Shown piece after piece: positions 12,080-32,930 of a stretch of 32,930 nt of DNA (position 1 is the stretch's first letter; every line of letters starts with the position of its first letter). Location: the IMG/VR virus record IMGVR_UViG_2690316161_000021, positions 1-32,930 of that record; one strand, written 5' to 3'. The notes beneath the pieces are model-generated. The model was not told the origin of the DNA. It ran no database searches and worked only from the letters and a program-made list of their open reading frames with translations. The DNA is from a virus (lineage: Duplodnaviria; Heunggongvirae; Uroviricota; Caudoviricetes). A program made the position numbers and the translations under genes.

Positions 12080-12087
12080 TACTTTTG

Positions 12088-12112
12088 AAGCGCCGATAAG
12101 GCGCTTTTTTTG
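12088..12112 (+). terminator. Intrinsic terminator after the 89-aa moron gene
   Basis: Stem AGCGCC/GGCGCT with GATAA loop followed by an 8-T run. Confidence 0.7.
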
Positions 12113-15364: not shown

Positions 15365-15518
15365 TGCTCCCCCTGAGTAATTACAGGAAGATTACCCGCG
15401 CGCGAAACCGTTCTCCTTAACCCCCTGTTCTGGCCGTTTTCTTACAACAAAAGCCCTTTGTATCAGCCTGTTACGCTTTGCCATCATGACTGAAGAACCA
15501 GTCAGAGGGGCAAAAACT
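15365..15518. promoter_or_regulatory. Divergent late promoter region between P and O
   Basis: Intergenic region between divergent capsid operons; contains TGT...ACA dyads but with a spacing different from the canonical N12. Confidence 0.35.
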
Positions 15519-16355: not shown

Positions 16356-16378
16356 TAAGACAAAGGAGCAAATTTTTT

Positions 16379-17431: not shown

Positions 17432-17476
17432 TCAACTCACGGCGGGCATCATGCCCGCCTGTAACGGAGAGAAAAA

Positions 17477-18277
17477 ATGATTACTCCTGCACAGCAACAC
17501 TGGCAGAACGTGATGGCACAGCGCGCAGGCCGGGCGAATGAAGGCGTGGACCATGCCGCGCGTACCGCGCATGAAGAGGTGCTGTATCGTCTGCGTCTGG
17601 CACAGGCCCGGCTTAAGGGCGTACAGGCCAGAAGCGCGAAAGCCGCCATCAAAAAAGAGTTGTTGCCGGATTTTTCCGGCTGGATTGAGGGAACGCTGGA
17701 GGCTGACGGCGGGCAGCAGGATGAAGTGATTGCCACGCTGATGGTGTGGGCGATTGACTGTGGCGATCTTCCGCTTGCGCTGCGTATCGGCGCGTATGTG
17801 GTCCATCACAACCTCATCATGCCGGATAACTTTGGCCGTACTGCTGCCACGGTACTGACCGAAGAAATCTGTAATCCGGTACTGACGCAGGCCGGGACGG
17901 ATGCCGACGCGGATTTGTCCGCCTTTATCGAACCACTGGACACCCTCCGGGAGATTGTCACCGACCAGGACATGCCGGACGAAGTGCGCGCCAAATTATG
18001 CAAAGCGTGCGCCTTTGCCCGCCGTGGCCTGACCGATGCGGACAGCATGGCCTCATCACTGAAGCTGCTGCGCGAAGCGATGCACCTGAACCCGAACGCA
18101 GGTGTGAAACGCGAGATTGCAACCCTTTCCCGCGCCCTGAAAAAAGCCGATTCCGCAGCCGCACCAGAAGATGCCAGCACACCGCAGGCGCAGGACGAAA
18201 GCAGCAAAAGTAAAAAGACAACGCGGAAGCCTGCAACACGAAAAACCACCGCGACGCAGAAGGCGAAGCGCGGTTAA
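17477..18277 (+). CDS. M: Terminase small/endonuclease subunit (P2 gpM-like)
   Basis: 266 aa in the gpM position with a basic C-terminal tail. Confidence 0.75.
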   Translation: MITPAQQHWQNVMAQRAGRANEGVDHAARTAHEEVLYRLRLAQARLKGVQARSAKAAIKKELLPDFSGWIEGTLEADGGQQDEVIATLMVWAIDCGDLPLALRIGAYVVHHNLIMPDNFGRTAATVLTEEICNPVLTQAGTDADADLSAFIEPLDTLREIVTDQDMPDEVRAKLCKACAFARRGLTDADSMASSLKLLREAMHLNPNAGVKREIATLSRALKKADSAAAPEDASTPQAQDESSKSKKTTRKPATRKTTATQKAKRG

Positions 18278-18380
18278 CGACTGACCCCGTCAGCGGGCGG
18301 CGTGCGCGGTGTTCCGGTTTGACTCCGTGACCGTTTACACCGAGCACCCACCGCCCGATTTTTTTCAGGAGTGAACCCCC

Positions 18381-18875
18381 ATGAGTATGGTTGCCAGAAC
18401 TGAACCAAGACCCGCAGAGGACGACATCACCGATACCGATGATGGTGATACCCGTATTTCAGCGGGTGCATTCTGGCCGGATATTGTGCTGCGTGAGCTG
18501 CGTCTGGCGATACGACTGCCGGGCCGTGTGACCACCTCCCGCCTGCTGCATACCGCCACCGGGGCAGTGGCACACGTTACCCGCGAGCTGGAAGCGTGGC
18601 AGCAGGAACAGCAGGCGGCTGGCCATCTGACGCTGGCCGATGTTCCGGCACCCGTAATTAACGGAGAAAGCGTCAATCTCTGGCACTGGCGCAATGCTGT
18701 TTATACCGCCACACGCGCCCTGATTCTGGAGCGTTACCGCGATGTGGACACAACGGACAAGGGCGACCGCAGGGCGGACGCACTGGATATACAGACATCG
18801 GATTTGTGGCGTGATGTGAGCTGGGCCATCTCTGACATTCTGTGCCGCCCGCGAATCTTTGCGGAGTTGTGCTGA
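18381..18875 (+). CDS. L: Head completion/stabilisation protein (P2 gpL-like)
   Basis: 164 aa, by synteny and size. Confidence 0.7.
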   Translation: MSMVARTEPRPAEDDITDTDDGDTRISAGAFWPDIVLRELRLAIRLPGRVTTSRLLHTATGAVAHVTRELEAWQQEQQAAGHLTLADVPAPVINGESVNLWHWRNAVYTATRALILERYRDVDTTDKGDRRADALDIQTSDLWRDVSWAISDILCRPRIFAELC

Positions 18876-19075
18876 TGAAAGTAAAGGCACTGGAAGGCGA
18901 CACCGTGGATTCGCTCTGTTTCCGGTACTACGGCACGACGCAGGGCGTCACCGAAAAGGTGCTGGATGCCAACCCCGGACTCTGCCAGCAGGTATTTCTG
19001 GACGCCGGGCAGGACGTGGAGATGCCAGAGCCGGAGAAGAAGAAACGAGAAATGATTCAGTTGTGGGGGGAGTAG
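18875..19075 (+). CDS. X: Tail protein X (P2 gpX-like)
   Basis: 66 aa; start overlaps the L stop (TGATG). Confidence 0.65.
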   Translation: MKVKALEGDTVDSLCFRYYGTTQGVTEKVLDANPGLCQQVFLDAGQDVEMPEPEKKKREMIQLWGE

Positions 19076-19077
19076 CA

Positions 19078-19401
19078 GTGAGCACCATTCAAACAGGGAT
19101 CACAGAGCAGGTTATTGCGTGGCTCTTTGACCACCTGCCAACGGTGTATGCAGTAGGCGCGGCGGTCAGCATTTCCGCGCTGATGAGTCTTTATGACGGA
19201 CGAACACTGGTTCAGACCGTAACGGGATCGCTGGCGTGCGGCGTTCTTGCCATGGCCGTGGCCGGGTCGTTGCGCTTCTTCGGGCTTCCTGAAGATGCCG
19301 TGACGTTTATCGGCGCATCAATCGGTTTTATGGGGGCAGAGAAAGCACGCGACAAGGTTATTGCGGCCTTTAATCGCAGGGTGAAGGAGAAGGACGAATG
19401 A
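19078..19401 (+). CDS. Holin
   Basis: About 107 aa from a GTG with GGGGGGAG RBS; predicted transmembrane helices; immediately upstream of the endolysin. Confidence 0.6.
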   Translation: MSTIQTGITEQVIAWLFDHLPTVYAVGAAVSISALMSLYDGRTLVQTVTGSLACGVLAMAVAGSLRFFGLPEDAVTFIGASIGFMGAEKARDKVIAAFNRRVKEKDE

Positions 19402-19790
19402 GCAACACATTTAAATTCAGCAGCCGGAGCGAAAAGAATTTGCAGGGCGTAAACCCTGATCTGGTGAAAGTGACCCGACGGGCACTGGAAATTTCGGAAG
19501 TGGATTTTGGTATCACCGAAGGGTTGCGCAGCCGTTACCGCCAGAAGCAACTTGTGGCCACAGGTAAGAGCCAGACCATGAACAGCCGCCACCTTACGGG
19601 GCATGCCGTGGATGTTGTGGCTTATATCGGCAGCCAGGTGTCATGGGAATGGCCGCTGTACGAAAAAATCGCAGCAGCATTCAGACAGGCCAGCCGGGAA
19701 CTGAATATTCCGGTGGAATGGGGCGGCGACTGGAAGACCCTGAAAGACGGACCGCATTTTCAGTTACCACACGGAGCCTATCCGGCATGA
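19398..19790 (+). CDS. Endolysin, peptidase M15 type (L-alanyl-D-glutamate peptidase-like)
   Basis: 130 aa with zinc-peptidase motifs SRHLTGHAVDV and GGDW; overlaps the holin stop and the spanin start. Confidence 0.75.
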   Translation: MSNTFKFSSRSEKNLQGVNPDLVKVTRRALEISEVDFGITEGLRSRYRQKQLVATGKSQTMNSRHLTGHAVDVVAYIGSQVSWEWPLYEKIAAAFRQASRELNIPVEWGGDWKTLKDGPHFQLPHGAYPA

Positions 19791-20194
19791 AGCTCTGGCC
19801 CACGCTTGGCGTCGCTTTCCTTCTGATTGCCGGATGGGGAACATCCATGCGTCTGTCGTGGTCGCTGGGCCGGGAGAACGCCAGAAACGAAGCGCAGGCC
19901 AGCACCCTGAAAAGTACCGCCGACACCCTGAATATCATCAGCGCCGGGGTACAGGATATGCAGCAGGTGCTGGCGCAACTCCGCGTGGAAAATCAGCAAC
20001 GCAATCAGGACGGAGAGGTAAGACGTGAACAGCTACGCAACGATATTGCAAAAGATGAATGCGCCCACGCTTTGCCTGACGCTCGTTTTACTGACAGGCT
20101 GCGCAGGCACGCAGAACGCGCCACTGCCAGCGCCGTCAGTCCGGCTTATACCGCAGACGCTGACCATACCGGTAACGCCTCCCCCCTTCCCTGA
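19787..20194 (+). CDS. i-spanin (Rz/LysB-like)
   Basis: N-terminal TM (LWPTLGVAFLLIAGWG) followed by a Q/R-rich coiled coil; ATGA overlap with the endolysin. Confidence 0.65.
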   Translation: MKLWPTLGVAFLLIAGWGTSMRLSWSLGRENARNEAQASTLKSTADTLNIISAGVQDMQQVLAQLRVENQQRNQDGEVRREQLRNDIAKDECAHALPDARFTDRLRRHAERATASAVSPAYTADADHTGNASPLP

Positions 20195-20345
20195 CACTCC
20201 CACATGGGGAAATCTCGGTATATGGGGCGACCGCCTTCTGGATGCACTGGAAACCTGTAACGCGGATAAACGGGCCATTGAATTACTGGAACAACGCAGG
20301 CTGCAACGACTGAACAACGAGGATAACAACCATGCTGAAAACTGA
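20025..20345 (+). CDS. o-spanin lipoprotein (Rz1/LysC-like)
   Basis: Lipobox LLTGCAG, Pro-rich; overlaps the i-spanin 3' end in another frame. Start could be 20025 or 20055. Confidence 0.65.
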   Translation: MNSYATILQKMNAPTLCLTLVLLTGCAGTQNAPLPAPSVRLIPQTLTIPVTPPPFPDTPTWGNLGIWGDRLLDALETCNADKRAIELLEQRRLQRLNNEDNNHAEN

Positions 20346-20799
20346 TTCCCTGCGTGAAGCCATGACCCGTTCATGCCGATGGTGTCAGGCTAACCCGGAA
20401 AAATTCACCATTTTCGTGGAGAGCGGCAACATTGAAACGACCGGAGAAACTCCCTCGTTTGTTTACCACTATCAGATGGTGATGTTTGTCATGGATTACG
20501 CCGGGGAGCTGGACGACCTCACGCTGCCGCTGCTGGCGTGGTTATCCGAAAATCAGCCACAGTTGTTGCTCAATCCGGAGCGTAATCAGGACATCAAATT
20601 TTCCGCCGTTATCAATGACGATGACAGCGCCGATCTCCTGTTTACGCTCCCCCTGCGGGAACGCGTTCGCATTACGCGCAACAGTCAGGGCACACCGCAG
20701 GCAGAACACCTGCCGGAGCCAAAACCCCGCCTGCCCTCTTCCGAAGGCGACTGGTCGCATGTATTCCAGGATGTGACGCGGGGTGAAAGCGATGGATAA
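20332..20799 (+). CDS. R: Tail completion protein (P2 gpR-like)
   Basis: 155 aa, by synteny and size. Confidence 0.7.
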   Translation: MLKTDSLREAMTRSCRWCQANPEKFTIFVESGNIETTGETPSFVYHYQMVMFVMDYAGELDDLTLPLLAWLSENQPQLLLNPERNQDIKFSAVINDDDSADLLFTLPLRERVRITRNSQGTPQAEHLPEPKPRLPSSEGDWSHVFQDVTRGESDG

Positions 20800-21427
20800 G
20801 GCATTCACCCGCGTGGATGAAACCTTTGAGGCTATCCGCGACAGCCTGAATCAGCAGGCCATCAATAACATCGCCAGAAAGCTGGCACAGGATTTACGCC
20901 GCGCCCAGCAGGCGCGCATCCGGTCACAGAAAGCGCCGGACGGGACCGCATGGACACCACGCAGACGCCGCGTAACCCGGATACAGGAGCGCATTCGCTT
21001 TATCTGGAATAACGAAGCACGCACGCTGAAAAACTGGCATCACGACACGGGGAAATACGGGCGAACCATTACCGGGTGGGATGAGGATAAAAACAATATC
21101 CGCACGTTTTATCGGGATGACATCGACCGTTTTCTGGAAATACGCACCCGGCGCATCAACCAGGACAGCACAAAGCGCGTCCCCATGTTCGTAAAACTGC
21201 GCACCGCCCGCTACCTGAAAGCCCGTGCAGATGCTTCCGGTGTGACGGTGGGTTACAGCGGCGTAGCCGCACGTATTGCCCGCGTTCATCAGTACGGTGA
21301 GCGCGATCAGGTTGCGCCGGGCATTTTCACCGATTACCCGGTACGTGAGCTGCTGGGTATCAGCCAGGCAGATGAGCGTCTGATTTATAACACGGTGCTG
21401 GGCCGGATTGCGGAGGCTGTACGGTGA
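20783..21427 (+). CDS. S: Tail completion/virion morphogenesis protein (P2 gpS-like)
   Basis: By synteny; start could be 20783 or 20792. Confidence 0.65.
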   Translation: MKAMDKAFTRVDETFEAIRDSLNQQAINNIARKLAQDLRRAQQARIRSQKAPDGTAWTPRRRRVTRIQERIRFIWNNEARTLKNWHHDTGKYGRTITGWDEDKNNIRTFYRDDIDRFLEIRTRRINQDSTKRVPMFVKLRTARYLKARADASGVTVGYSGVAARIARVHQYGERDQVAPGIFTDYPVRELLGISQADERLIYNTVLGRIAEAVR

Positions 21428-22005
21428 GCGCAGAACTCATGCGACTGCTGAGCAATATCATCCGCACCGGGATCATCTCTGAAGTTGATGAGAAGTCCTG
21501 GCGCGTGCGCGTTCGCAGCGGCGAACTGGAAACAGGCTGGTTGCGCTGGAACACCACGCGCGCGGGAACCTTCAATGTGTGGCTGCCGCCATCAGTGGGC
21601 GAACAGGTGGTAATTGCCTGCATTGGCGGCAACCCGGAAACCGCCATGATAATTGGCAGCCTGTGGAGTGATGCCAATCCGGCCCCCGGCAAAAGCCTGA
21701 AAGAAATCGTGGTCAGCGCGCCGGATGGCGCGGTGTTCCGCTACGACGCGGACGCAGGCGCACTGAGCGCCAGCGGCATGAAAACAGCCACCCTGCAGGC
21801 ATCCGTCAGCGTGAAACTGGATACGCCCGTCGTGGAATGCACAAACCTTCTGAAAACAGCCGAGATTGACGTCACAAAAGGGGGAAAGATGAGCGGCAAT
21901 ATCACGCACAGCGGCGGCGATTTCACCTCAAACGGCATCACAGTGCATACGCATAAGCACGGTGGCGTTAAAGGTGGCAGCGATTCGACAGGAGGCCCGC
22001 AGTGA
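21424..22005 (+). CDS. V: Baseplate spike/assembly protein (P2 gpV-like)
   Basis: 193 aa, by synteny, overlapping its neighbours. Confidence 0.7.
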   Translation: MSAELMRLLSNIIRTGIISEVDEKSWRVRVRSGELETGWLRWNTTRAGTFNVWLPPSVGEQVVIACIGGNPETAMIIGSLWSDANPAPGKSLKEIVVSAPDGAVFRYDADAGALSASGMKTATLQASVSVKLDTPVVECTNLLKTAEIDVTKGGKMSGNITHSGGDFTSNGITVHTHKHGGVKGGSDSTGGPQ

Positions 22006-22352
22006 CAACCCGCTACACAGGAATGAACCCGGACGGAACGGGAAACCTGAACGATATGGAGCACCTGAAACAGTCAGTCAGGGACATCCTGACCACCCCG
22101 CTGGCAAGCCGGGTTATGCGACGGGAATATGGCAGCCTTGTGCCTGATTTGATTGACGAACCCATGAATAACACCACGCGTCTGCAATGCATGAGTGCTG
22201 CCGTGATTGCGCTGACACGATGGGAACCCCGCATTGCCCTGGACGCTATCGACGTTGTCTGGAAGGCAGGAGGCCGCGCCGGGGTGACGCTGTCGGGCAC
22301 TGTTATGCAGACCATGCAGAATGTTGAATTAACCATCACGCTGAGAGAGTAA
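22002..22352 (+). CDS. W: Baseplate protein (P2 gpW-like)
   Basis: 116 aa, by size and synteny. Confidence 0.75.
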   Translation: MTTRYTGMNPDGTGNLNDMEHLKQSVRDILTTPLASRVMRREYGSLVPDLIDEPMNNTTRLQCMSAAVIALTRWEPRIALDAIDVVWKAGGRAGVTLSGTVMQTMQNVELTITLRE

Positions 22353-22355
22353 ATC

Positions 22356-23252
22356 ATGCCTGCTGTTGACCTTTCCCAGTTACCGGAACCCGCCATCATC
22401 GCGAAGCCTGATTTTGAGGCAATTCTGGCTGACACAAAGGCCATGATGATTGCGGCTTATCCCGCCGAACAGCGTGAAGCCGTTTCCGCCGCGCTGGAGC
22501 TGGAATCGGAACCCCTGAACGTTATCGCCCAGACAACAGCGTTTCGTGAAATGCTGTTACGCCAGCGGGTCAATGAGGGGGCACGCGCCTGCATGTTAAG
22601 CCACAGCGCCGGGACAGACCTGGACAACCTCGCGGGCAATATGAACACAAAGCGCCTGACCATCACTCCGGCAACGGATACCACCGACGCGGTGATGGAG
22701 AGCGACACCTCGCTGAGACTGCGGGCGCAGCGGGCGTACGACGGCCTGAGTGTTGCTGGCCCGTCAGGTGCATACGAGTATTTTGCCCGCAGCGCCAGCG
22801 GTCTGGTGCGTGATGCGCGGGCTATCAGCCCGTCTCCGGCAAATGTGACGGTTTCCATCCTGTCCACTGAGGGCGACGGCACAGCAACGGAGGCGTTGCT
22901 TAATACCGTTCGCGCCGTTCTGAATGCAGAGGATACCCGCCCGGTGGCCGACCGCCTGACCGTACAGAGCGCCAGAATCGTGACATGGCGGCTGAATGCA
23001 AAACTGTACTTTTACCCCGGCCCGGAATCCGAACCTATTCTGGCCGCGGCTGAATCGTCGTTCAGGAAGTGGCTGGCTGAGCAGGGGCTTATCGGTCAGG
23101 ACGTGGCGTTGTCCGCCATTGCTGCCGCACTGCATGTGCACGGTGTGCAACGCGTGGAGATAATCGAACCCACACAGAATATGACCATCAGCGACATACA
23201 GGCGGCGCGCTGTGAGTCATTCACCATCAGCGAAGGTGGACGCAATGAGTAA
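22356..23252 (+). CDS. J: Baseplate protein (P2 gpJ-like)
   Basis: 298 aa, by size and synteny. Confidence 0.8.
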   Translation: MPAVDLSQLPEPAIIAKPDFEAILADTKAMMIAAYPAEQREAVSAALELESEPLNVIAQTTAFREMLLRQRVNEGARACMLSHSAGTDLDNLAGNMNTKRLTITPATDTTDAVMESDTSLRLRAQRAYDGLSVAGPSGAYEYFARSASGLVRDARAISPSPANVTVSILSTEGDGTATEALLNTVRAVLNAEDTRPVADRLTVQSARIVTWRLNAKLYFYPGPESEPILAAAESSFRKWLAEQGLIGQDVALSAIAAALHVHGVQRVEIIEPTQNMTISDIQAARCESFTISEGGRNE

Positions 23253-23853
23253 TTCGTTGTTACCACCATCAGCCAGCAATTTCATGCGTTGTGCCGAAGC
23301 CGTCGGAACACGCATTACAGACATTCCGGTAGACCTCAACACGCTGTGGTCGCCGGACACCTGCCCGGTGCATCTGCTGCCTTATCTCGCCTGGGCGTTT
23401 TCCGTTGACCGCTGGGATCGCAACTGGCCGGAAGAGACAAAGCGACAGGTAATTCGTGATGCATGGCTGATACACCGACACAAAGGGACCATCAGCGCAC
23501 TGCGAAGAGCCGTGGAGCCTCTCGGCTACCTGATTGAAGTAAAGGAGTGGTGGCAACTCAACGAGGAGCCAGGAACATTTCGCATTGTTGTCGGAGTACT
23601 TGATCAGGGCATCACCGATGAAATGTATCAGGAACTTGAGCGCCTTATTGCGGATGCAAAACCAGTAAGTCGCCATCTGACGGGGCTGGCGATCAGCCTG
23701 AGTGTGAACGGAAAGATTTTCGTTGGTACGGGATGCTATCACGGCGATGCCCTGACGGTTTATCCCTACACCCCGGAGTCCATTATTGTCGAAGGGGATT
23801 ATTTCCCTGCCCCGGCCATTCATTTAATTGATAATCTGAGAGTAAACGCATGA
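23245..23853 (+). CDS. I: Baseplate/tail protein (P2 gpI-like)
   Basis: About 200 aa from the ATG at 23245, overlapping the J stop. Confidence 0.7.
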   Translation: MSNSLLPPSASNFMRCAEAVGTRITDIPVDLNTLWSPDTCPVHLLPYLAWAFSVDRWDRNWPEETKRQVIRDAWLIHRHKGTISALRRAVEPLGYLIEVKEWWQLNEEPGTFRIVVGVLDQGITDEMYQELERLIADAKPVSRHLTGLAISLSVNGKIFVGTGCYHGDALTVYPYTPESIIVEGDYFPAPAIHLIDNLRVNA

Positions 23854-25331
23854 CAGTGAAATACTACGCCATTCTGACTAATCAGGGCGCAGCACGACTG
23901 GCTAACGCGACGATGCTCGGCAGTAAGCTGAATCTGACGCAAATGGCCGTTGGTGATGCAAATGGTGTGTTACCAACACCAGACCCTGCACAAACAAAAC
24001 TGATTAACCAGAAACGCATTGCACCGCTGAATCTTCTGAGTGTTGACCCTAACAATCAGAGCCAGATTATTGCGGAGCAAATCATCCCTGAAAACGAGGG
24101 AGGATTCTGGATCCGTGAGATTGGTCTTTATGATGATGAAGGTGTACTCATTGCGGTGGCAAACTGCCCGGAAACGTACAAACCGCAGTTGCAGGAAGGC
24201 AGTGGACGCACCCAGACTATCCGCATGATTCTGGTTGTCACGAACACCGAAGCTATCACGCTGAAAATCGACCCGTCTGTGGTTCTGGCAACCCGCAAAT
24301 ATGTGGATGATAAAATCTCAGAGCACGAACAGTCACGACGTCACCCGGACGCCTCGCTGACCGCAAAAGGTTTTACTCAGTTAAGCAGTGCAATTAACAG
24401 TGAATCAGAAACACTGGCCGCAACACCGAAAGCGGTTAAGGCTGCATATGACCTGGCTAACGGGAAATATACCGCCCAGAACGCCACCACTATACAAAAA
24501 GGGATTGTTCAGCTCAGTAGCGCCACGAACAGCACGTCTGAAACGCTGGCAGCGACACCAAAAGCTGTTAAGGTGGTAATGGATGAAACGAACAAGAAAG
24601 CACCATTAAACAGCCCGGCACTGACCGGAACGCCAACAACACCAACAGCGCCACAGGGAACTAATAGTACCCAGATCGCAAGCACGGCTTTCGTTATGGC
24701 CGCGATTGCCGCACTTGTAGATTCGTCACCTGATGCACTGAACACGCTGAACGAACTGGCTGCGGCGCTGGGCAATGACCCGAATTTTGCGACCACCATG
24801 ACTAACGCGCTTGCGGGTAAGCAACCGAAGGATGCCACCCTGACGGCGCTGGCGGAGCTTGCTACATCAGCAGATAAACTCCCATATTTTACAGGGGCAG
24901 ATCGTGCCGCGTTAACCGCGTTGACAAGTGTTGGACGTGCCATTCTTGGTAAAACCAGCACTCAGGGAGTTCTTGATTACCTTGGTTTGGGAGAAGCGGC
25001 AAAACGGAATGTGGGAACAGGGGAAAATCAGATACCAGATATGTCTGCATTTCCATCTGGCAAAAACTGGTTTCAGTTACCAAGTGGTCATATTGTCCAA
25101 ATGTTTTCGATGAATGTTTATGGGGCGGACACTAACGGAACTACAGGTAATTTCCCTATTGCATTTCCTTCAGGCGCACTGGCTGTTAGTGCCTTATGGT
25201 CAGATGGCTCATTAACCGCTGCTCCGACCTTTAAACTTATGGGGTACACGACAACAAGGACATCAGTAACCTTAAAAGTATCAACCGGAAATGGTTTGTA
25301 TGGAACTATGATTATCGCAATAGGAAGATAA
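23850..25331 (+). CDS. H: Tail fibre protein (P2 gpH-like) with exchangeable C-terminal tip
   Basis: 493 aa; conserved N-terminus (MAVGDANG...GGFWIREIGLYDDEGVLIAVAN) and an internal duplicated QLSSA.NS.SETLAATPKAVK motif. A hix-like site lies inside the gene at 24970-24995. Confidence 0.85.
   Translation: MTVKYYAILTNQGAARLANATMLGSKLNLTQMAVGDANGVLPTPDPAQTKLINQKRIAPLNLLSVDPNNQSQIIAEQIIPENEGGFWIREIGLYDDEGVLIAVANCPETYKPQLQEGSGRTQTIRMILVVTNTEAITLKIDPSVVLATRKYVDDKISEHEQSRRHPDASLTAKGFTQLSSAINSESETLAATPKAVKAAYDLANGKYTAQNATTIQKGIVQLSSATNSTSETLAATPKAVKVVMDETNKKAPLNSPALTGTPTTPTAPQGTNSTQIASTAFVMAAIAALVDSSPDALNTLNELAAALGNDPNFATTMTNALAGKQPKDATLTALAELATSADKLPYFTGADRAALTALTSVGRAILGKTSTQGVLDYLGLGEAAKRNVGTGENQIPDMSAFPSGKNWFQLPSGHIVQMFSMNVYGADTNGTTGNFPIAFPSGALAVSALWSDGSLTAAPTFKLMGYTTTRTSVTLKVSTGNGLYGTMIIAIGR
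24970..24995 (+). other. Candidate Gin/Hin/Pin-type crossover site inside H (TTCTTGATTACC TT GGTTTGGGAGAA)
   Basis: 26-bp site with 12-bp half-sites flanking a 2-bp core, resembling the hix/gix pattern as recalled; its 3' 15 bp are identical to the site at 31411-31425. Confidence 0.55.
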
Positions 25332-25332
25332 T

Positions 25333-25437
25333 ATGAATCAATATATTTATTCCCCTTCGGAAAATGCTTTTTATGCTGTTAATTTAAAAAACACTTATGA
25401 AGTAAATGGAACATGGCCTGCTGATGCATTAGAGTAA
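25333..25437 (+). pseudogene. G: Tail fibre assembly gene (gpG/Tfa-like), 5' fragment interrupted by IS66
   Basis: AGGAAG RBS and ATG at 25333; 34 codons (MNQYIYSPSENAFYAVNLKNTYEVNGTWPADALE) ending in a stop created by the IS end; the remainder is on the minus strand at 32466-32816. Confidence 0.8.
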
Positions 25438-25486
25438 CCGGCTCATTTAAACCGTCTGGTCTGTTTCCTCCGGCTCTACAAAAATA

Positions 25487-26164
25487 ATGTCCATCATTTT
25501 TAATGGACACTATCGTATGAAACACCGGACCTGGATCACTGAAGCTTTACGTCTTCACTTTGAAGAACATTTACCCCGGGTTGTGGCCGGGCGTCGCCTG
25601 GGTGTACCAAAATCAACAGTTTGTAGTATGTTCGTGCGCTTTCGGAGAGCTGGCCTTTCGTGGCCTTTGCCCGCAGGCATGTCGGAGCAGGAACTTGATG
25701 CCTGCCTTTACGGACAATTTTCCACGGTACCAGTCGTACGTCCTGAAAGCACCGTTATATCCGAAGCCCCCGTGGTAAAAAAACGTCCCCGGCGGCCCAA
25801 CTTCCCTTATGAGTTTAAAATCGCCTTAGTGGAGCAGTCACTGCAGCCCGGAGCCTGTGTGGCGCAGATCGCCCGGGAAAACGGAATCAACGATAACCTG
25901 CTCTTCAACTGGCGCCATCAATACCGGAAAGGTGGCCTGCTGCCTTCCGGAAAAAATATGCCGGCACTGCTTCCCGTGACGTTAACGCCGGAGCCGGATA
26001 ATAAAATCCCGGCCCCCGCACAGGAACCAGAGCAGATAAATACACCGTCCGACAGTCTGTGTTGTGAGCTGGTTCTGCCGGCCGGAACTCTCAGGCTTAA
26101 AGGTAAACTGACGCCGGCGTTATTACAGACACTTATCCGCGAAATAAAAGGGAGCAGCCACTGA
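25487..26164 (+). CDS. tnpA: IS66-family accessory protein TnpA (orf1)
   Basis: First ORF of the element, ATGA-coupled to tnpB; start codon uncertain. Confidence 0.6.
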   Translation: MSIIFNGHYRMKHRTWITEALRLHFEEHLPRVVAGRRLGVPKSTVCSMFVRFRRAGLSWPLPAGMSEQELDACLYGQFSTVPVVRPESTVISEAPVVKKRPRRPNFPYEFKIALVEQSLQPGACVAQIARENGINDNLLFNWRHQYRKGGLLPSGKNMPALLPVTLTPEPDNKIPAPAQEPEQINTPSDSLCCELVLPAGTLRLKGKLTPALLQTLIREIKGSSH

Positions 26165-26511
26165 TGATATCTCTCCCTGCAGGTTCGCGTATCTGGCTGG
26201 TTGCAGGTATCACCGATATGCGAAATGGCTTTAACGGCCTGGCATCAAAAGTTCAGAACGTCCTGAAGGATGACCCGTTCTCCGGACACCTGTTCATCTT
26301 CCGCGGACGCCGGGGTGACCAGATAAAAGTGTTGTGGGCTGACAGTGACGGACTGTGCCTCTTCACCAAACGCCTGGAGCGGGGCCGCTTCGTCTGGCCA
26401 GTCACCCGTGACGGCAAGGTGCACCTTACTCCGGCTCAGTTATCCATGCTTCTTGAAGGTATCAACTGGAAGCACCCGAAACGAACGGAACGCGCTGGAA
26501 TCCGCATATAA
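26164..26511 (+). CDS. tnpB: IS66-family TnpB (orf2)
   Basis: 115 aa, typical size and position for IS66 orf2. Confidence 0.8.
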   Translation: MISLPAGSRIWLVAGITDMRNGFNGLASKVQNVLKDDPFSGHLFIFRGRRGDQIKVLWADSDGLCLFTKRLERGRFVWPVTRDGKVHLTPAQLSMLLEGINWKHPKRTERAGIRI

Positions 26512-26530
26512 CCCGTTGTAAAGTGAGGAT

Positions 26531-28102
26531 ATGGACACCTCACTTGCTCATGAGAACGCCCGCCTGCGGGCACTGTTGCAGACGCAACAGGACACCATCC
26601 GCCAGATGGCTGAATACAACCGCCTGCTCTCACAGCGGGTGGCGGCTTATGCTTCCGAAATCAACCGGCTGAAGGCGCTGGTTGCGAAACTGCAACGTAT
26701 GCAGTTCGGTAAAAGCTCAGAAAAACTTCGTGCAAAAACCGAACGGCAGATACAGGAAGCACAGGAGCGAATCAGCGCACTTCAGGAAGAAATGGCGGAA
26801 ACGCTGGGTGAGCAATATGACCCGGTACTGCCATCCGCCCTGCGCCAGTCTTCAGCCCGTAAACCGTTACCGGCCTCACTTCCCCGTGAAACCCGGGTTA
26901 TCCGGCCGGAAGAGGAATGCTGTCCTGCCTGTGGTGGTGAACTCAGTTCTCTGGGATGTGATGTGTCAGAGCAACTGGAGCTTATCAGCAGCGCCTTTAA
27001 GGTTATCGAAACACAACGTCCGAAACAGGCCTGTTGCCGGTGCGACCATATCGTGCAGGCACCAGTACCTTCAAAACCCATTGCACGCAGTTATGCCGGA
27101 GCGGGGCTTCTGGCCCATGTTGTCACCGGGAAATATGCAGACCATCTGCCGTTATACCGCCAGTCAGAAATATACCGTCGTCAGGGAGTGGAGCTGAGCC
27201 GTGCCACACTGGGGCGCTGGACAGGTGCTGTTGCTGAACTGCTGGAGCCGCTGTATGACGTCCTGCGCCAGTATGTGCTGATGCCCGGTAAAGTCCATGC
27301 TGATGATATCCCCGTCCCGGTCCAGGAGCCGGGCAGCGGTAAAACCCGGACAGCCCGGCTGTGGGTCTACGTCCGTGATGACCGTAACGCCGGTTCACAG
27401 ATGCCCCCGGCGGTCTGGTTCGCGTACAGTCCGGACCGGAAAGGTATCCATCCACAAAATCACCTGGCCGGTTACAGCGGTGTGCTTCAGGCCGATGCTT
27501 ACGGTGGTTACCGGGCGTTATACGAATCCGGCAGAATAACGGAAGTCGCGTGTATGGCTCATGCCCGGAGAAAAATCCACGATGTGCATGCAAGAGCGCC
27601 CACCTACATCACCACGGAAGCCCTGCAGCGTATCGGTGAACTGTATGCCATCGAGGCAGAGGTCCGGGGCTGTTCAGCAGAACAGCGTCTGGCGGCAAGA
27701 AAAGCCAGAGCCGCGCCACTGATGCAGTCACTGTATGACTGGATACAGCAACAGATGAAAACACTGTCGCGTCACTCAGATACGGCAAAAGCGTTCGCAT
27801 ACCTGCTGAAACAGTGGGATGCACTGAACGTGTACTGCAGTAATGGCTGGGTGGAAATCGACAACAACATCGCAGAGAACGCCTTACGGGGAGTGGCCGT
27901 AGGCCGGAAAAACTGGATGTTCGCGGGTTCCGACAGCGGTGGTGAACATGCGGCGGTGTTGTACTCGCTGATCGGCACATGCCGTCTGAACAATGTGGAG
28001 CCAGAAAAGTGGCTGCGTTACGTCATTGAACATATCCAGGACTGGCCGGCAAACCGGGTACGCGATCTGTTGCCCTGGAAAGTTGATCTGAGCTCTCAGT
28101 AA
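26531..28102 (+). CDS. tnpC: IS66-family transposase TnpC
   Basis: 523 aa with N-terminal leucine-zipper-like region, a CxxC...CxxC zinc motif and a DDE-type core; ends 30 bp before the right IR. Confidence 0.85.
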
Positions 28103-28132
28103 ATATCAATACGGTTCTGACGAGTCGCTTAC

Positions 28133-30216
28133 GGAGCGATGCCGCCAGTGGGCAGGCATTTCTTGCAATGGCTGGTTTTACTCCGCAGGCCATTCAGGCT
28201 GCGCTTCCCGGCGTGCTGAGCATGGCAACGGCTGGCGGTATGGATCTCGGCGAGACGGCGGATATTGGCTCAAATATCCTGACGCAGTTCGGCCTTTCTG
28301 CTGACCAGATGGACCGGGTCGGTGACACACTTACCGCAGCGTTTACCCGTACCAACACTGACCTTCGCGCACTGGGTGAAACCATGAAATATGCAGGTCC
28401 GGTGGCGGGCAAGCTGGGAATATCGCTGGAGCAGGCCGCAGCGATGGCGGGCGTACTGGCGAATATGGGTATCAGGGGAAGTGATGCCGGGACGGCAATG
28501 CGTGCCAGCCTGGCTCGTCTGGCATCACCGCCAAAGGCGGCGGCAGAAGCTCTGAAAGAGCTGGGCGTGTCCGTCTCTGATGCGAACGGCAAAATGCGCC
28601 CGATGGAGGATTTGCTGGCCGACCTTTATAAAGCCACCCGCAAATACGGGGAAGTTGACCGGGTATCGTTCTTTAAGGACATTGCCGGAGAAGAGGCTTT
28701 CACATCATTTATGGCCCTCGTTGATGCGGCAGGTGACGGCTCCTTACCTAAACTGAGAAAAGAACTTGAAGGCGCGCGCGGTGAGGCTGAGCGCACGGCA
28801 AAGGTTATGGCCAACAACCTTGACGGCGATCTGAAATCACTCGGCAGTGCATGGGAAGGGTTGCGCATCCGCATTGCAGATCTGATTGACGGTCCGCTGC
28901 GTTCTGTCACGCAGTGGCTAACGCGGGTGGTCTCAAAGGTGACGGCACTGGCGCAGGCCCATCCTGTACTGACGCGCCAGCTACTGATTGCAGGCGGTGC
29001 GCTGCTGGCAGTGACTGCAACCGTAGGCTCGTTGTCGCTTGCTCTTGGTGTGCTTGCTGGCCCACTGGCAAAACTGCGTCTTGGTTTTTCCCTCCTGACC
29101 GGATCAATGAATGCTGTCAGGCTCCTGCCAGCACTATGGGGAATGGTGACGGGTTCCGTTTCTTTGCTGGGGGGTGCTATCGGGGCGCTGTTCAGTCCGG
29201 TTGGTCTTATCGTGGCTGCGCTTGCCGGAGCTGCCGTTCTTATCTGGAAATACTGGGATCCCATCAGGGCATTTTTTGCCGGGGTGTTCAGCGGGATTAT
29301 GGAAAGGCTGGCCCCGTTGCGCGAAACCTTTGAACGGTTTGGTCCTGTTTTTGACGCAATCGGAAGCGGGATCAGCCAGGTGTTTAACTGGTTTAAATCG
29401 CTGCTGTCACCGATGGAGTCCAGCAAGGAAACGCTGGATAAATGTACCAGTGCTGGCGAGATATTCGGTAACGTTCTTGGCGGTGCGTTACAACTTGTTC
29501 TGACGCCTGCAAAAATGCTACTGGATACGCTGGCGTGGATACTTGAAAAACTTGGCGTCCTTCCGGATGAAGCGGAAAGGGCGCGCAAGAAAATCGAAGA
29601 CGCACAGCGTGCGGCCATTCTTCAGGACAAGGTTGCCTTGCTTCAGGGGGACCTGGCGAAAATCAATCCGCCGAAGCCTGTGGAAAATGGCAATGGCACC
29701 GGAGGTGATAAACCCAAAGACAACAAACCGCTCACAGACAGCAATACCGGTACGCTACGCAGACTCAGCAAAATTGCTGATAACACAGGTAAGCTGGTTG
29801 ATGAGACGAAAAAACGCATTGGCCCCGGCGATATTGTCTTTAAGAACCTGCCCCGCGCACTTGCTGTTCGTGGGGAGTGGCAGGAGCGGAAGATTGCGCA
29901 GGTCAGTAAGCCTGCTTCCGCAATCAACATCACACCCGTGGTCCCGACTCCTCTGCCTCCGGCGCTGGTCCCTGTTGTTGCGGCCAGCTCCCGCCCGGTG
30001 GCGGAGGCCATACGATCGCCAGTGGCATCAGTTCCTGCAACTTCCCGTAACCGGGAGCCTGTTGTCTCCGGATTTGGCGGTGAAATTCATGTTCATCTGC
30101 ATAACGTTGTTACGCAGAATCCCCGCGAACTGGCGAAACTGGTCGGTGAAATGGTCAGGGCAGAATTGGAACGACGCGACCGTGCCGGACGTGGCAGTTT
30201 TTACGATAAAGATTGA
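28133..30216 (+). pseudogene. T: Tail tape measure protein (P2 gpT-like), 5'-truncated at the IS66 boundary
   Basis: The reading frame is open from the first base after the IS; 682 codons from the first ATG at 28168; Ala/Gly-rich with hydrophobic central segments; followed by gpU. Confidence 0.75.
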
Positions 30217-30222
30217 GGAGTC

Positions 30223-30717
30223 ATGGCCATGATGATGATCTACGGCATGTTTGTTTTTGAGCTGCGCACATTGCCGCATCAGCAGTTACAGCAAAATAAA
30301 AGCTGGCGGCATGTGAAAAATGAACGCGTTAACCGTTCAGCAAGCTGGCAGTATATCGGGGCAGGCGATGATCGCATCGTGCTTTCTGGTGTGCTTTATC
30401 CTGAAATCACAGGTGGCGAAGTGTCGCTGTCGCTGCTGACCACGCAGGCGTATACAGGACGCCCCTGGCCTCTGATTGATGGCGTCGGACAGATTTACGG
30501 CATGTATGTACTGACTGAAACGAATACGACCCGCTCCGAGTTTGATCGCTACGGTAAGGCGAAAAAGATAGAATTTTCACTGACTCTTGAACGCTGTGAT
30601 GAGGATTTGCGGGAGCGCCTGCAATCCTCATCGTTCAGTGATATGCTGTCCGGCTTCAAAGATAAGGTCACATCATCCCTTAACAGCGCGGCCAGCTCCG
30701 TTAAAGGGCTGTTTTGA
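30223..30717 (+). CDS. U: Tail protein (P2 gpU-like)
   Basis: 164 aa; N-terminal MMMIYGMFVFELRT pattern and position after T. Confidence 0.75.
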   Translation: MAMMMIYGMFVFELRTLPHQQLQQNKSWRHVKNERVNRSASWQYIGAGDDRIVLSGVLYPEITGGEVSLSLLTTQAYTGRPWPLIDGVGQIYGMYVLTETNTTRSEFDRYGKAKKIEFSLTLERCDEDLRERLQSSSFSDMLSGFKDKVTSSLNSAASSVKGLF

Positions 30718-30724
30718 TTAACGC

Positions 30725-30758
30725 AAAACCGCTAATGGTCAGATTAGCGGTTTTCATT
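30725..30758. terminator. Bidirectional intrinsic terminator between convergent U and the invertase gene
   Basis: 8-bp stem CCGCTAAT/ATTAGCGG with 6-nt loop, flanked by an A-run upstream and a T-run downstream. Confidence 0.6.
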
Positions 30759-31343
30759 TTCCTGAATCTGCCTGATTGTTTCTTCAGCCTGTATATCGCC
30801 TACAGGGTGATAACGATAAATCGTCGATATGCCGATGTCGTAAATGATCGCCAGTTGTTTCCTGTCATGACCGTTTTTAATCAGCCTCGCTATTTGCTCG
30901 TGTTGTTCTTTTGTCAACTTCGGGCGACGTCCGCCAATGCGTCCTTGTGCGCGTGCTGCTGCCAGCCCGGCCAGTGTACGCTCTACAATTAATTCACGTT
31001 CCATTTCGGCTAAAGCTCCCATGACGTGAAAAAAGAAACGCCCCATGGGTGTTGATGTGTCAATGCTGTCCGTCAGACTACGGAAATTAACACCTTTTTC
31101 CCGCAATTCCTCAATAAGCGTGATCAGGTGTTTCATACTTCTGCCCAGTCTGTCCAGCTTCCAGACAACCAGCGTATCTCCTTCTGATAGCGTTCTGAGC
31201 AGTTTTTTCAATCCCGGTCTGGCTGATTTCGTTCCGCTGATTTTATCTTCAAAAATCAGTTCACATCCTGCGCACTCCAGCGCGTTACGCTGCAATTCTG
31301 TATTCTGGTCATTTGTTGATACGCGGACATAGCCAATAAGCAT
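30744..31343 (-). CDS. pin: Serine recombinase, DNA invertase of the Gin/Hin/Pin family
   Basis: 199 aa; N-terminal MLIGYVRVSTNDQNTELQ with catalytic serine and a C-terminal HTH; very similar to e14 Pin as recalled. Confidence 0.9.
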   Translation of the reverse strand: MLIGYVRVSTNDQNTELQRNALECAGCELIFEDKISGTKSARPGLKKLLRTLSEGDTLVVWKLDRLGRSMKHLITLIEELREKGVNFRSLTDSIDTSTPMGRFFFHVMGALAEMERELIVERTLAGLAAARAQGRIGGRRPKLTKEQHEQIARLIKNGHDRKQLAIIYDIGISTIYRYHPVGDIQAEETIRQIQENENR

Positions 31344-31370
31344 GATGGATCCCCTGAATAAAAACCGGGG

Positions 31371-31892
31371 ATGATGCCAGTTAGCCGTAATCTCTGCATT
31401 TTCTTAAACGTTGGTTTGGGAGAAGGCTCTGCATTACCTGTTGGTGTGCCTGTTCCATGGCCTTCAGCCACACCGCCAACAGGCTGGCTGAAATGCAACG
31501 GTGCGGCTTTTTCTGCTGAAGAATACCCGGAACTGGCAAAGGCTTATCCGACAAATAAATTACCTGATTTACGTGGTGAGTTTATTCGTGGCTGGGATGA
31601 CGGGCGCGGTATTGATGCAGGACGTGTTTTATTGAGCATTCAGACAGGGATGCTGGAAAAACACCGCCATATTGTTGTTGCCAATGATGGTTACGACACA
31701 AAAGATGAATGGGAACTGGCTACGATTTTCAAAAAGACATACACACAAGGACGTGGACTTGATGCCACAAATACAGGAGGGAGTCTGATCCCATCACCGA
31801 CACTTCATTCACGAGGGAGTATCGGTAATACTGGCGGGAGTGAAACCCGTCCACGAAATATTGCATTTAACTATATCGTGAGGGCTGCATAA
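31371..31892 (+). CDS. Alternative tail-fibre C-terminal (variable) segment with tail-collar-like motifs; not a free-standing gene
   Basis: The frame begins at the crossover site (GLGEG matches GLGEA in H); contains LPDLRGEFIRGWDDGRGID and a C-terminal NYIVRAA typical of phage tail-fibre tips; the ORF ATG at 31371 is probably fortuitous. Confidence 0.6.
   Translation: MMPVSRNLCIFLNVGLGEGSALPVGVPVPWPSATPPTGWLKCNGAAFSAEEYPELAKAYPTNKLPDLRGEFIRGWDDGRGIDAGRVLLSIQTGMLEKHRHIVVANDGYDTKDEWELATIFKKTYTQGRGLDATNTGGSLIPSPTLHSRGSIGNTGGSETRPRNIAFNYIVRAA
31399..31424 (+). other. Candidate invertase crossover site (TTTTCTTAAACG TT GGTTTGGGAGAA)
   Basis: Shares its 3' 15 bp with the site inside H; lies between the invertase gene and the alternative tail-fibre tip. 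Confidence 0.55.
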
Positions 31893-32494
31893 TGGATAAC
31901 GCCGTATTAAATAGCGAGCTTATTGCCACGAAGGCGGGGAATATTACCGTCTATAACTATGATGGTAAAACTCGGGAATATATTTCTACTTCAAATGAAT
32001 ATCTTGCCATTGGTGTCGGTATCCCTGCATATTCCTGTCTGGATGAACCTGGTATACATAAGGCGGGTTATGCTATCTGCCGTTCGATGGATTTAAACTC
32101 ATGGGAATATGTGCCAGACCATCGCGGTGAAATCGTCTATAACACCGAAACGGGAGACGCCAAAGAAATCACAGCTCCGGGTGATTATCCTGAAAATACA
32201 ACCACTATCGCCCCGTTAACGCCATTCGATAAATGGGATGGTAAGAAATGGGTGACCGATACTGAGGCACAACACGGTGCCGCAGTAGAAGCGGCAGAAG
32301 CACAGCGCCAGTCACTGATTGATGCAGCAATGGCTTCCATCAGTCTGATTCAACTGAAATTGCAGGCCGGACGTAAACCGACGCAGGCAGAAACAACCAG
32401 ACTTAACGCTGTGCTGGATTACATTGACGCGGTGACGGCAACAGATACCAGCACCGCGCCGGATGTCATCTGGCCTGAACTGCCGGAGGCGTAG
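31892..32494 (+). CDS. Tail fibre assembly chaperone (Tfa) paired with the alternative tip
   Basis: 200 aa; C-terminal ...LDYIDAVTATDTSTAPDVIWPELPEA is homologous to the C-terminus of the split G gene; converges with the G 3' fragment. Confidence 0.7.
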   Translation: MDNAVLNSELIATKAGNITVYNYDGKTREYISTSNEYLAIGVGIPAYSCLDEPGIHKAGYAICRSMDLNSWEYVPDHRGEIVYNTETGDAKEITAPGDYPENTTTIAPLTPFDKWDGKKWVTDTEAQHGAAVEAAEAQRQSLIDAAMASISLIQLKLQAGRKPTQAETTRLNAVLDYIDAVTATDTSTAPDVIWPELPEA

Positions 32495-32816
32495 GCCATT
32501 CAATATCTGGCGCACTGGAGGTATCAACCAGCTCCAGTGCCTCCAGATAATCCAGCCACAAATTATATTGCGCCAGTTCCTCACCTTTCAGACGACCAAT
32601 AGCGGCTTTACCGGGCCATTGTTTACTGTTCATGTATTCGTTGGCCTGGTTAATCAATAATTGCCTCTCTGATTCGGCCTGTTCAATAAGTTCCTCATGT
32701 GATGGTGGAGGTATTTCAGCCCATGTGGGAAAACCATTTTCCCCTGCAACTCGGATTTTCCCTTGTGGCGGTTCCGCCATATATTTTACAGAAATGTCAT
32801 CAGGAATATCTAATGC
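32466..32816 (-). pseudogene. G: 3' fragment of the split tail fibre assembly gene G
   Basis: Minus-strand frame reads ALDIPDDISVKYMAEPPQGK...DIEWPTPPAVQAR; joined to the 25333-25433 fragment across the shared 8-mer it gives an intact Tfa of about 147 aa. Confidence 0.8.
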
Positions 32817-32930
32817 GTAAGCGACTCGTCAGAACCGTATTGATATTTACTGAGAGCTCAGATCAACTTTCCAGGGCAACAGATCGCGTACCCGGTTTGC
32901 CGGCCAGTCCTGGATATGTTCAATGACGTA
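32817..32930 (-). mobile_element. IS66-family element, copy 2 (partial, inverted; right IR plus tnpC 3' end)
   Basis: 32817-32930 is the exact reverse complement of 28019-28132 (the tnpC 3' end and right IR of copy 1). Confidence 0.9.

Follow-up and report, generated by a model that had tools for sequence, protein, structure and literature searches.

An IS66-disrupted Pin-type tail-fibre switch in a P88-like Escherichia coli prophage

Genes and crossover sites at the tail-fibre locus

The window analysed here is a stretch of 32,930 bp, namely the final 32,930 bp of the draft contig CYBY01000004.1. The host element is a P88-like (Xuanwuvirus, P2-family) E. coli prophage between btuC and ihfA; annotated relatives were colinear with it at 95-99% identity, and the insertion lies beside btuC. 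The genes and sites of a tail-fibre switch were located as follows.

23850-25331, + strand: tail-fibre gene H in its current fusion, 493 aa, with the Pfam domains Phage_tail_fib, Phage_fiber_2 and Gp53-like_C; constant part 23850-24983, variable tip Sv (gp53-like C domain) 24984-25331
24970-24995, listed on the - strand: pix-type crossover site 1; the + strand reads TTCTTGATTACC TT GGTTTGGGAGAA and the reverse complement TTCTCCCAAACC AA GGTAATCAAGAA, core dinucleotide 24982-24983
30744-31343, - strand: pin, an apparently intact Din-family serine DNA invertase gene, 199 aa, with Resolvase and HTH_7 domains
31236-31298, - strand: candidate Fis-dependent recombinational enhancer in the 5' end of pin, two G-N13-C 15-mers
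31371-31892, + strand: Sv', an alternative and silent fibre tip, Pfam Collar
31399-31424, listed on the - strand: pix-type crossover site 2; the + strand reads TTTTCTTAAACG TT GGTTTGGGAGAA and the reverse complement TTCTCCCAAACC AA CGTTTAAGAAAA, core dinucleotide 31411-31412
31892-32494, + strand: tfaB, the intact chaperone gene for Sv', 200 aa, Pfam Caudo_TAP, product 87.5% identical to e14 TfaE

The constant part of H, up to 24996, was 98.7-100% identical to that of JP538 and of sister draft genomes. Sv' is usable only once it is fused to this constant part at the crossover (from 31413), and the fused gene H-c::Sv', encoding 537 aa, is present in JP538 and sister drafts at 99.9-100% identity. 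The Collar and Caudo_TAP domains confirmed that an alternative tip with its own Tfa chaperone lies beside pin and site 2, as a preliminary description of this DNA had claimed.

Direct reading bore out two further statements of that description. Both sites are 26 bp long, lie on the same strand as the window is written, and have 15 bp in common (24982-24996 = 31411-31425); GLGE is encoded across the shared half-site both in the H frame (...VLDYLGLGEA) and in the ORF from 31371 (...NVGLGEG). As written, the sites are direct repeats spaced 6429 bp apart, with site 2 located 56 bp upstream of the pin start codon.

Such sites could be chance matches, and the region mosaic prophage debris without a site-specific switch. 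A lone shared 15-mer is not improbable in 33 kb and has no significance by itself; the shared 14-mer occurs in only two places in the window, even with three mismatches allowed, and this search result was not above that of its shuffles. However, alignment to known invertase sites, which had been proposed as a check, gave 25/26 matches between site 2 and e14 pixR, and 25/26 and 22/26 matches between site 1 and p15B mixQ''R' and e14 pixL, respectively. A weight matrix trained solely on published Din-family sites (PMC3241671) ranked the two sites first and second in the window (site 2, 31.3 bits; site 1, 30.4 bits), whereas the next real match scored 8.1 bits and the best of 30 shuffles 16.8 bits. 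Each site is built from two 12-bp half-sites of imperfect symmetry that enclose a 2-bp core, which is AA as in hix, cix and pix. Moreover, one site falls exactly where the constant part of H meets the variable tip and the other next to the start of pin, and they are the homology breakpoints against relatives in the other orientation; homology to relatives of the other flip state stops at site 1. A chance match was ruled out by the literature-site weight matrix together with these breakpoints. Neither the 14-mer search nor the weight matrix revealed a third site or a multi-segment system in the window.

The preliminary description had placed an intact Pin-family invertase gene next to site 2, and this was verified by the full length, the domains and the Ser9 of the product. 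Pin residues 1-184 aligned to the Mu Gin structure 4m6f at E = 1.5e-91; the serine at position 9 was conserved in this alignment and in that to the Gin structure 3uj3, consistent with a serine recombinase. The identity of Pin was 82.5% to e14 PinE, 87% to the P88 invertase and 76% to Mu Gin, and the pin DNA was 100% identical to that of JP538. The two G-N13-C 15-mers lie at pin nucleotides 46-60 and 94-108, 48 bp apart, and may form a Fis-dependent enhancer; G-N13-C is found at the same two positions in Mu gin and in the P88 invertase gene, a comparison that is confounded by coding conservation. In Din invertases, the Fis/enhancer system enforces orientation-specific synapsis (PMC3798978), and the Fis-independent mutant Hin-H107Y, unlike wild-type Hin, produces deletion and inversion at equal frequency (PMC4817059).

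IS66 copies and the native layout

The rest of the region is occupied by IS66 sequences, a split chaperone gene and tail genes.

25333-25433, + strand: 5' part of tfaA (first 33 codons), which encodes the chaperone of the Sv tip; cut by IS66#1
25434-28132, + strand: IS66#1, ISCro1-like, 2699 bp, with tnpA, tnpB and tnpC; ends GTAACCGG... / ...CGCTTAC
28133-28135, no strand: scaffold join, ...CGCTTACGG N GCGATGCC... in the public record; the window has A in place of the N at 28135
28136-30216, + strand: tape-measure gene T, 3' part, starting near codon 243 of 935; Pfam PhageMin_Tail and TIGR01760, from model position 69
30223-30717, + strand: tail gene U, Pfam Phage_P2_GpU
32466-32816, - strand: 3' part of tfaA, Pfam Caudo_TAP from model position 36
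32817-32930, - strand: right end of IS66#2, 114 bp, opposite in orientation to copy 1 and reaching the end of the source contig

IS66#1 carries the Pfam domains HTH_Tnp_1, TnpB_IS66 and DDE_Tnp_IS66 and is 99.9% identical to the L002 copy, whose ends and 8-bp duplication GGTATCCC set the termini. The assignment to the IS66 family is based on tnpA/tnpB/tnpC, terminal inverted repeats starting with GTAA, and 8-bp duplications, GGTATCCC in L002 and GCATTAGA here. The duplication in the window is split: GCATTAGA stands at 25426-25433, and its reverse complement TCTAATGC at 32809-32816, the inner flank of IS66#2, whose 114 bases all match the right end of copy 1. IS66 copies in H1, H2 and H4 were also considered and are unrelated insertions.

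As written, the block inverted between the IS66 ends spans 28133-32816 (4.68 kb) and contains the 3' parts of T and tfaA together with U, pin, site 2, Sv' and tfaB. When tfaA 25333-25433 was joined to the reverse complement of 32466-32808, the resulting product of 147 aa was identical to JP538 TfaA. Against the IS-free JP538, the window resolved into four blocks that were 98.7-100% identical and broke off at the shared 15 bp and at the IS ends. Thus, the split 8-bp duplication, the rebuilt tfaA and the JP538 colinearity show the earlier proposal, that undoing the IS66 inversion restores the classic layout, to be exact. After this operation, the tip/chaperone pairs Sv/tfaA and Sv'/tfaB stand in opposite orientations, in the layout of JP538. 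That prophage displays the intact invertible segment for which a comparison with P2-like prophages had been suggested. Together, the sites, the invertase and the tips with their chaperones support the claimed Hin/Gin/Cin/Pin-type host-range switch on a P2-family tail fibre.

Both orientations were found at the level of the lineage, with the exchange at the core. The window and the draft CYCC are in the H-c::Sv state, whereas JP538 and the drafts CYCB and JICA are in the H-c::Sv' state; identity was 99.9-100%, and the breakpoints fell within the shared 15 bp. CYCB has the same IS66 insertion in tfaA, and the junctions of both flip states occur within this one assembly. As judged from these comparisons, the opposite flip state of JP538 and the sisters, with homology breaking at the shared 15 bp, indicates an active Pin system in this lineage. 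The sister assemblies provide natural evidence that Pin still flips a segment that has grown to ~4.55 kb by an internal IS66.

In the native switch, Pin dimers would act on two inverted 26-bp pix sites, with Fis on the enhancer in 5' pin, and the segment between the sites would invert. This inversion would exchange the H tip (Sv or Sv') together with the cognate chaperone gene (tfaA or tfaB). Such a mechanism is established for the family, and by homology it is expected to operate here.

Over the 3' part of T, identity to the JP538 gene is 100%, and both JP538 and the sister drafts have an unbroken T of 935 aa. A second IS66 insertion, in T, is suggested by the contig break, the join and the two bases GG. 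A predicted 245-aa 5' T product was found on a 2.2-kb contig of another assembly; as its cluster has 690 fragment members, this occurrence is weak evidence. T-U-invertase is common to P88 and other Xuanwuvirus genomes at 92-94% identity. The reading of T-U toward pin as an older rearrangement of the P2 order was rejected, as this order is native in the viable P88 and its relatives; P88 is inducible (PMC5285337).

The prophage is defective in either orientation, because tfaA is split after 33 codons by IS66#1 and T is apparently broken at an IS66 end. Since no tails would be made in either case, a switch frozen on the current H tip would mean little in functional terms.

Orientation of the segment between the IS66 copies

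The preliminary description had regarded the sites as direct repeats about 6.4 kb apart and the switch as locked on the current H tip. The first part holds for the sequence as written, in which both sites lie on the same strand, but that placement rests on the N join. Base 28135 is N in CYBY01000004.1 and is the sole difference between this contig and the window over 19,081 bp; the N marking the join in the source record had become an ordinary base in the window. The direct-repeat orientation hinges entirely on the choice of the flank that follows IS66#1, and because an N stands there, the locked state is not established. Inversion between inverted IS copies makes no new junction sequences. 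Both isomers have all four IS/flank junctions in common, so that short reads cannot tell them apart.

Several observations bear on the join. The bases GGA at 28133-28135 had no match in the tape-measure gene of any relative, and the GG that directly follows IS66#1 agrees with the T flank (GGCGATGC) but not with the tfaA flank (GCATTAGA). CYBY01000004.1 and the sister contigs end 110-114 bp into IS66 copies. CYCB contig 22 contains a single-N join between 32107 and 24179, which is compatible with no possible isomer. In all six relatives compared (Mu, P88, UTAK-1, JP538, VTB96929v and AHM21C2872I), the two top-scoring sites were on opposite strands. Among complete E. coli genomes, no record spanned at least 80% of 23800-32930 in the window arrangement, and a scan of genome contigs for the exact junctions returned no match.

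We favour, by a modest margin over even chances, a real chromosome that is uninverted, the written orientation being the scaffolder's choice and carrying no sequence evidence. In this isolate, one IS66 sits in tfaA inside the invertible segment, and a second IS66 end, in the opposite orientation, apparently abuts T. In the uninverted arrangement, the order would run H-Sv-tfaA'::IS66::'tfaA, followed by tfaB, Sv', site 2 reversed, and then pin. The sites would be inverted ~4.55 kb apart and the switch still able to flip, as in the sister isolates; the inverted 4.68-kb block of the deposited order is what gives the pix sites their direct orientation, at a spacing of 6.4 kb. As T is intact in the sister drafts, one further event, IS66 into T, is enough for the uninverted form. 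Four points count against this reading. In the deposited scaffold IS66#1 is followed by the T end, and none of the present results prove this wrong; the GG fits the T flank; an indirect search brought up no junctions of the other flip state under this isolate; and 2.7-kb inverted repeats may recombine often enough for the inverted isomer to predominate.

A chromosome truly inverted at 28133-32816, with the fibre fixed as H-c::Sv, is the less probable reading but has a sizeable chance of being correct. It could have arisen by homologous recombination between inverted IS66 copies or by one-step intramolecular replicative transposition. Direct-repeat substrates of Din invertases undergo knotting and rare deletion; with direct pix sites, wild-type Pin could not invert the segment, and at most a rare 6.4-kb deletion would be expected. 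The contig as deposited has this order, GG after IS66#1 fits it, such an inversion predicts a split target duplication, and wild-type Din invertases are orientation-dependent (PMC3798978, PMC4817059). However, the uninverted isomer predicts the split duplication and the four IS/flank junctions just as well, the record shows an N at the join, and the same assembly series has an impossible one-N join at this locus. Starting from T-intact sister genomes, the inverted isomer also needs one more event than the uninverted form.

It is improbable that both isomers coexist, with RecA-dependent flip-flop between the 2.7-kb inverted IS66 copies alternately permitting and blocking Pin and the assembly showing one isomer arbitrarily. 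Two identical inverted IS66 ends do bound a 4.68-kb segment, and a sister assembly shows a population mixture at the locus, but this is for the Pin flip rather than the IS flip, and the IS copy in T appears recent, since there are sister isolates without it. More improbable still is a two-tier switch, in which RecA flipping of the IS66-bounded 4.7-kb block would serve as a lock over the Pin switch with consequences for the host; if it were true, the sites would toggle between inverted (permitted) and direct (blocked, or self-deleting along with pin).

The case carries a lesson for assembly. A short-read scaffolder may place an inverted-IS-bounded segment either way, and claims of direct versus inverted sites inherit this ambiguity.

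Comparison with known switches

The element is an ordinary Pin-type tail-fibre switch of a known kind, damaged by IS66. Its biological weight is small, as it adds a further Pin/pix tail-fibre switch, carried by a prophage that insertion sequences have already inactivated.

It resembles the e14 P-segment of E. coli K-12 (pinE, pixL/pixR, stfP/tfaP, stfE/tfaE) in the half-site TTCTCCCAAACC with the AA core, in the 60% identity of Sv' to StfE, and in the 82-91% identity of the pin-site-tip-tfa DNA. In both, the invertase is encoded outside the segment, with transcription directed away from the adjoining site. However, e14 is a lambdoid remnant, whereas the present prophage is P88-like, belongs to the P2 family and has a complete H gene; the outer half of site 1 is closer to p15B mixQ''R' than to pixL; and here an IS66 lies inside the segment and the sites are direct as written.

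The Mu G segment (gin, gixL/gixR, S/U, S'/U') has the same architecture and mechanism class, with G-N13-C pairs 48 bp apart at the same codon positions of gin, but the gix core is GA, the half-sites differ (16-17/26 match), and Mu belongs to another phage family. For p15B Min, a multiple-inversion system, the likeness is that of site 1 to mixQ''R' (25/26), whereas two sites only are present here, giving a single two-state switch rather than a multi-segment, shufflon-like one.

P88 (Xuanwuvirus) and its relatives are alike in backbone and order, with FI-FII-E-T-U running toward the invertase and invertible tip/chaperone pairs adjoining H. P88 differs in its sites, which are of the bix type with a GA core and are identical to those of Shigella boydii PinB, in its more Gin-like invertase and in having no IS66. 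P2-like prophages of EPEC E2348/69 likewise have invertible loci, in which inversion was shown by sequencing and PCR (PMC4272514).

Crossover sites and the invertase

The switch region of the P88-like prophage contains the following features.

Features of the switch region (window positions)
23850-25331, plus strand: H, tail-fibre gene, 493 aa, gp53-like C-terminal tip
25333-25433, plus strand: first 33 codons of tfaA, a tail-fibre assembly gene (name given here)
25434-28132, plus strand: complete IS66-family element (IS66#1)
28136-30216, plus strand: 3' two-thirds of T, the tape-measure gene
30223-30717, plus strand: tail gene U
30744-31343, minus strand: pin, serine invertase
31371-31892, plus strand: Sv' fibre tip, Collar domain
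31399-31424: site 2
31892-32494, plus strand: tfaB, chaperone
32466-32816, minus strand: 3' part of tfaA
32817-32930, minus strand: first 114 bp of another IS66 copy, in inverted orientation (IS66#2)

Direct reading confirmed the two crossover sites that the preliminary description had recognized, together with the layout around them. Site 1 (24970-24995) reads TTCTTGATTACC-TT-GGTTTGGGAGAA and site 2 (31399-31424) reads TTTTCTTAAACG-TT-GGTTTGGGAGAA. As written, they lie on the same strand with 15 bp in common, and GLGE is encoded across the shared half-site by H and by the 31371 ORF, each in its own frame. When compared with the tabulated Din-family sites (PMC3241671), the reverse complement of site 2, TTCTCCCAAACC AA CGTTTAAGAAAA, was identical to e14 pixR at 25 of 26 positions, and that of site 1, TTCTCCCAAACC AA GGTAATCAAGAA, matched p15B mixQ''R' at 25/26 and e14 pixL at 22/26. 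A weight matrix built only from published Din-family sites was scored on the window and on 30 shuffles. The two sites ranked first (31.3 bits for site 2, 30.4 bits for site 1), far from the next real match (8.1 bits) and the best of the shuffles (16.8 bits). Both score on the minus strand and are therefore in direct repeat. The two best-scoring sites lie on opposite strands in four related E. coli prophages, and likewise in Mu and P88. Neither a 14-mer search nor the weight matrix found a third crossover site in the window.

Pin (199 aa) retains Ser9, and its residues 1-184 align to the Gin crystal structures (E = 1.5e-91). It is 87% identical to the P88 invertase, 82.5% to e14 PinE and 76% to Mu Gin; JP538, an IS-free relative, has the same pin DNA (100% identity). 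Two G-N13-C 15-mers start at nucleotides 46 and 94 of pin, 48 bp apart, where Mu gin has them as well; this pair would fit a candidate Fis enhancer of the kind carried inside invertase genes.

IS66 insertion and flipping of the segment

The 8 bp to the left of IS66#1, GCATTAGA (25426-25433), recur as their reverse complement, TCTAATGC (32809-32816), at the inner flank of IS66#2. When 25333-25433 was fused to the reverse-complemented 32466-32808, the product was a TfaA of 147 aa with the same sequence as in JP538. The JP538 prophage matched the window in four blocks, 12116-24996 (98.7%), 24982-25433 (reversed, 99.6%), 28136-31425 (reversed, 100%) and 31408-32816 (99.9%), with breakpoints at the shared 15 bp and the IS ends. 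From the split 8 bp, the rebuilt TfaA and these blocks, it follows that un-inverting 28133-32816 restores the classic order, as had been proposed, and the reconstruction is exact. The restored order would read H-c (the constant part of H), site, Sv-tfaA (the current tip and its chaperone gene), then tfaB-Sv' reversed, site and pin.

IS66 elements have entered tail-fibre assembly genes repeatedly. In a Mu-like prophage of Logan ERR1512448_161, an IS66 has entered the 8-bp target used in the window, GCATTAGA (L018 10090-10131), within a tfa homologue (98.7% identity); this IS66 is oriented opposite to the window copy, so the insertion is independent. In AHM21C2872I, an IS66 lies in a tfaB-type gene with the duplication GGTATCCC (L002 9483-9491, 12190-12198). 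Such genes may be an insertion hot spot for IS66.

A synthetic H-c::Sv' junction built from the window was found in JP538 at 99.9% identity, where the window's current tip occupies the silent position beside pin. Many genomes match this tip from exactly window 24979-24982. The same IS66 insertion in tfaA is present at 100% DNA identity in three draft assemblies, of which CYCC is H-c::Sv, whereas CYCB and JICA are H-c::Sv'. CYCB (GCA_001283405.1) contains both flip states, H-c::Sv' on contig 3 (CYCB01000003.1) and pin::Sv' with H-c::Sv on contig 22, and ~700-800 bp per side are present twice, for which a culture mixed for both Pin orientations is the simplest explanation. The occurrence of IS66-bearing sisters in both flip states shows that Pin still flips the segment in this lineage with the IS inside, which enlarges it to about 4.55 kb. 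Together with the published-site matches and the Pin homology, both flip states support the earlier classification as a Pin-type invertible tail-fibre switch.

Orientation of the IS66-bounded block

The preliminary description took the switch as now locked because its sites are direct repeats. The window corresponds to the terminal 32,930 bp of draft contig CYBY01000004.1 (GCA_001285845.1), and both end 114 bp into IS66#2. The sole difference is base 28135, an A in the window and an N in the contig (also L012 14286, L008 4796), 3 bp past the IS66#1 end: ...CGCTTACGG N GCGATGCC... This gap marker, turned into an ordinary base, hides a scaffold join at the IS66#1/T junction, which is why GGA at 28133-28135 has no match in the T gene of any relative compared. 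Had two contigs overlapped by one base, the junction would be clean, IS/GGCGATGC. That IS66#1 is followed by the T end of the 4.68-kb block is therefore a scaffolding decision.

When a segment inverts between inverted repeats, no new junction sequence arises. The two isomers have tfaA'/IS-left, IS-right/'tfaA, IS-right/T3' and T5'/IS-left in common (T5' and T3' being the two parts of T; the last junction is predicted), and thus reads shorter than 2.7 kb are unable to discriminate between them. Sister contigs of the same series end at IS66 ends. A single-N join in CYCB contig 22 (CYCB01000022.1, position 8846) connects window-equivalent 32107 to 24179, incompatible with every isomer, which shows that such joins are unreliable in the CYBY/CYCB assembly series. 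T is intact (935 aa) in sister isolates, so the uninverted form requires a single IS insertion in T, and the inverted one an additional event. We consider the chromosome somewhat more probably uninverted than inverted, with its pix sites inverted. On the T5' contig, ...ACCGCAGGCGATGC would be expected to pass into the IS66 left end, GTAACCGGCTC, and GGCGATGC to be the target that was duplicated. The inverted isomer, with direct sites and a locked switch, is what the record as assembled depicts, but its join rests on the N, the sister assembly has an impossible join of this type, and the additional event is needed; we regard it as a possible but less favoured reading. A mixture of both isomers seems quite improbable.

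Direct-repeat substrates lead invertases to knots or rare deletions. In wild-type Din invertases, the Fis/enhancer invertasome enforces orientation-specific synapsis (PMC3798978), and only Fis-independent mutants, Hin-H107Y among them, delete as efficiently as they invert, unlike wild-type Hin (PMC4817059). The argument that direct sites would block Pin is thus sound in principle. If the direct state were true, a rare deletion would yield H-c::Sv' and lose IS66#1, the 3' part of T, U and pin.

tfaA, the chaperone gene of the current tip, is interrupted after 33 codons, and T is broken at approximately codon 243, beside an IS66 end. With both genes broken, the prophage would be unable to build tails in either orientation, a point overlooked previously, and the switch state would therefore have no obvious phenotypic consequence.

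Prophage backbone and known switches

The prophage adjoins btuC and is colinear with prophages of the P2 family that resemble P88 (Xuanwuvirus). The FI-FII-E-T-U operon of this group natively points toward the invertase (window 28136-30717; UTAK-1, JP538, locus L004 and P88); it runs opposite to V-W-J-I-H and converges on the invertase 3' end, while D and ogr are read in the other direction. Since P88 is viable and inducible (PMC5285337), the T-U-pin neighbourhood itself is not rearranged, and we rejected its reading as an altered P2 gene order.

The prophage is a mosaic, in which window 1-12200 and 12116-24996 have different closest matches. The left arm, with btuC, the integrase, a replication gene and a ParM-like cargo gene (~10170-11129), matches a prophage of O157:H7 strains at 99.9% identity. 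JP538 becomes the best match from 12116 on, and upstream of the portal gene it differs, carrying TOPRIM-domain and hypothetical genes. The gpD-like gene is only 267 aa as annotated in UTAK-1 (7730-8530) and JP538 (22968-23768), where a small pseudogene overlaps its start, and 369 aa in strain ML775 and the sister drafts; the 267-aa copies may be 5'-truncated.

The element belongs to a well-known kind of switch. The window, JP538, UTAK-1 and AHM21C2872I have pix-type sites with an AA core, whereas P88 (8893-8918, 11964-11989) and VTB96929v (L005 18932-18957, 22004-22029), which share the backbone of the window, have bix-type sites, whose core is GA and whose sequence equals that of the PinB sites published for Shigella boydii. 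The invertase and its sites appear to be swapped as one unit among otherwise similar prophages.
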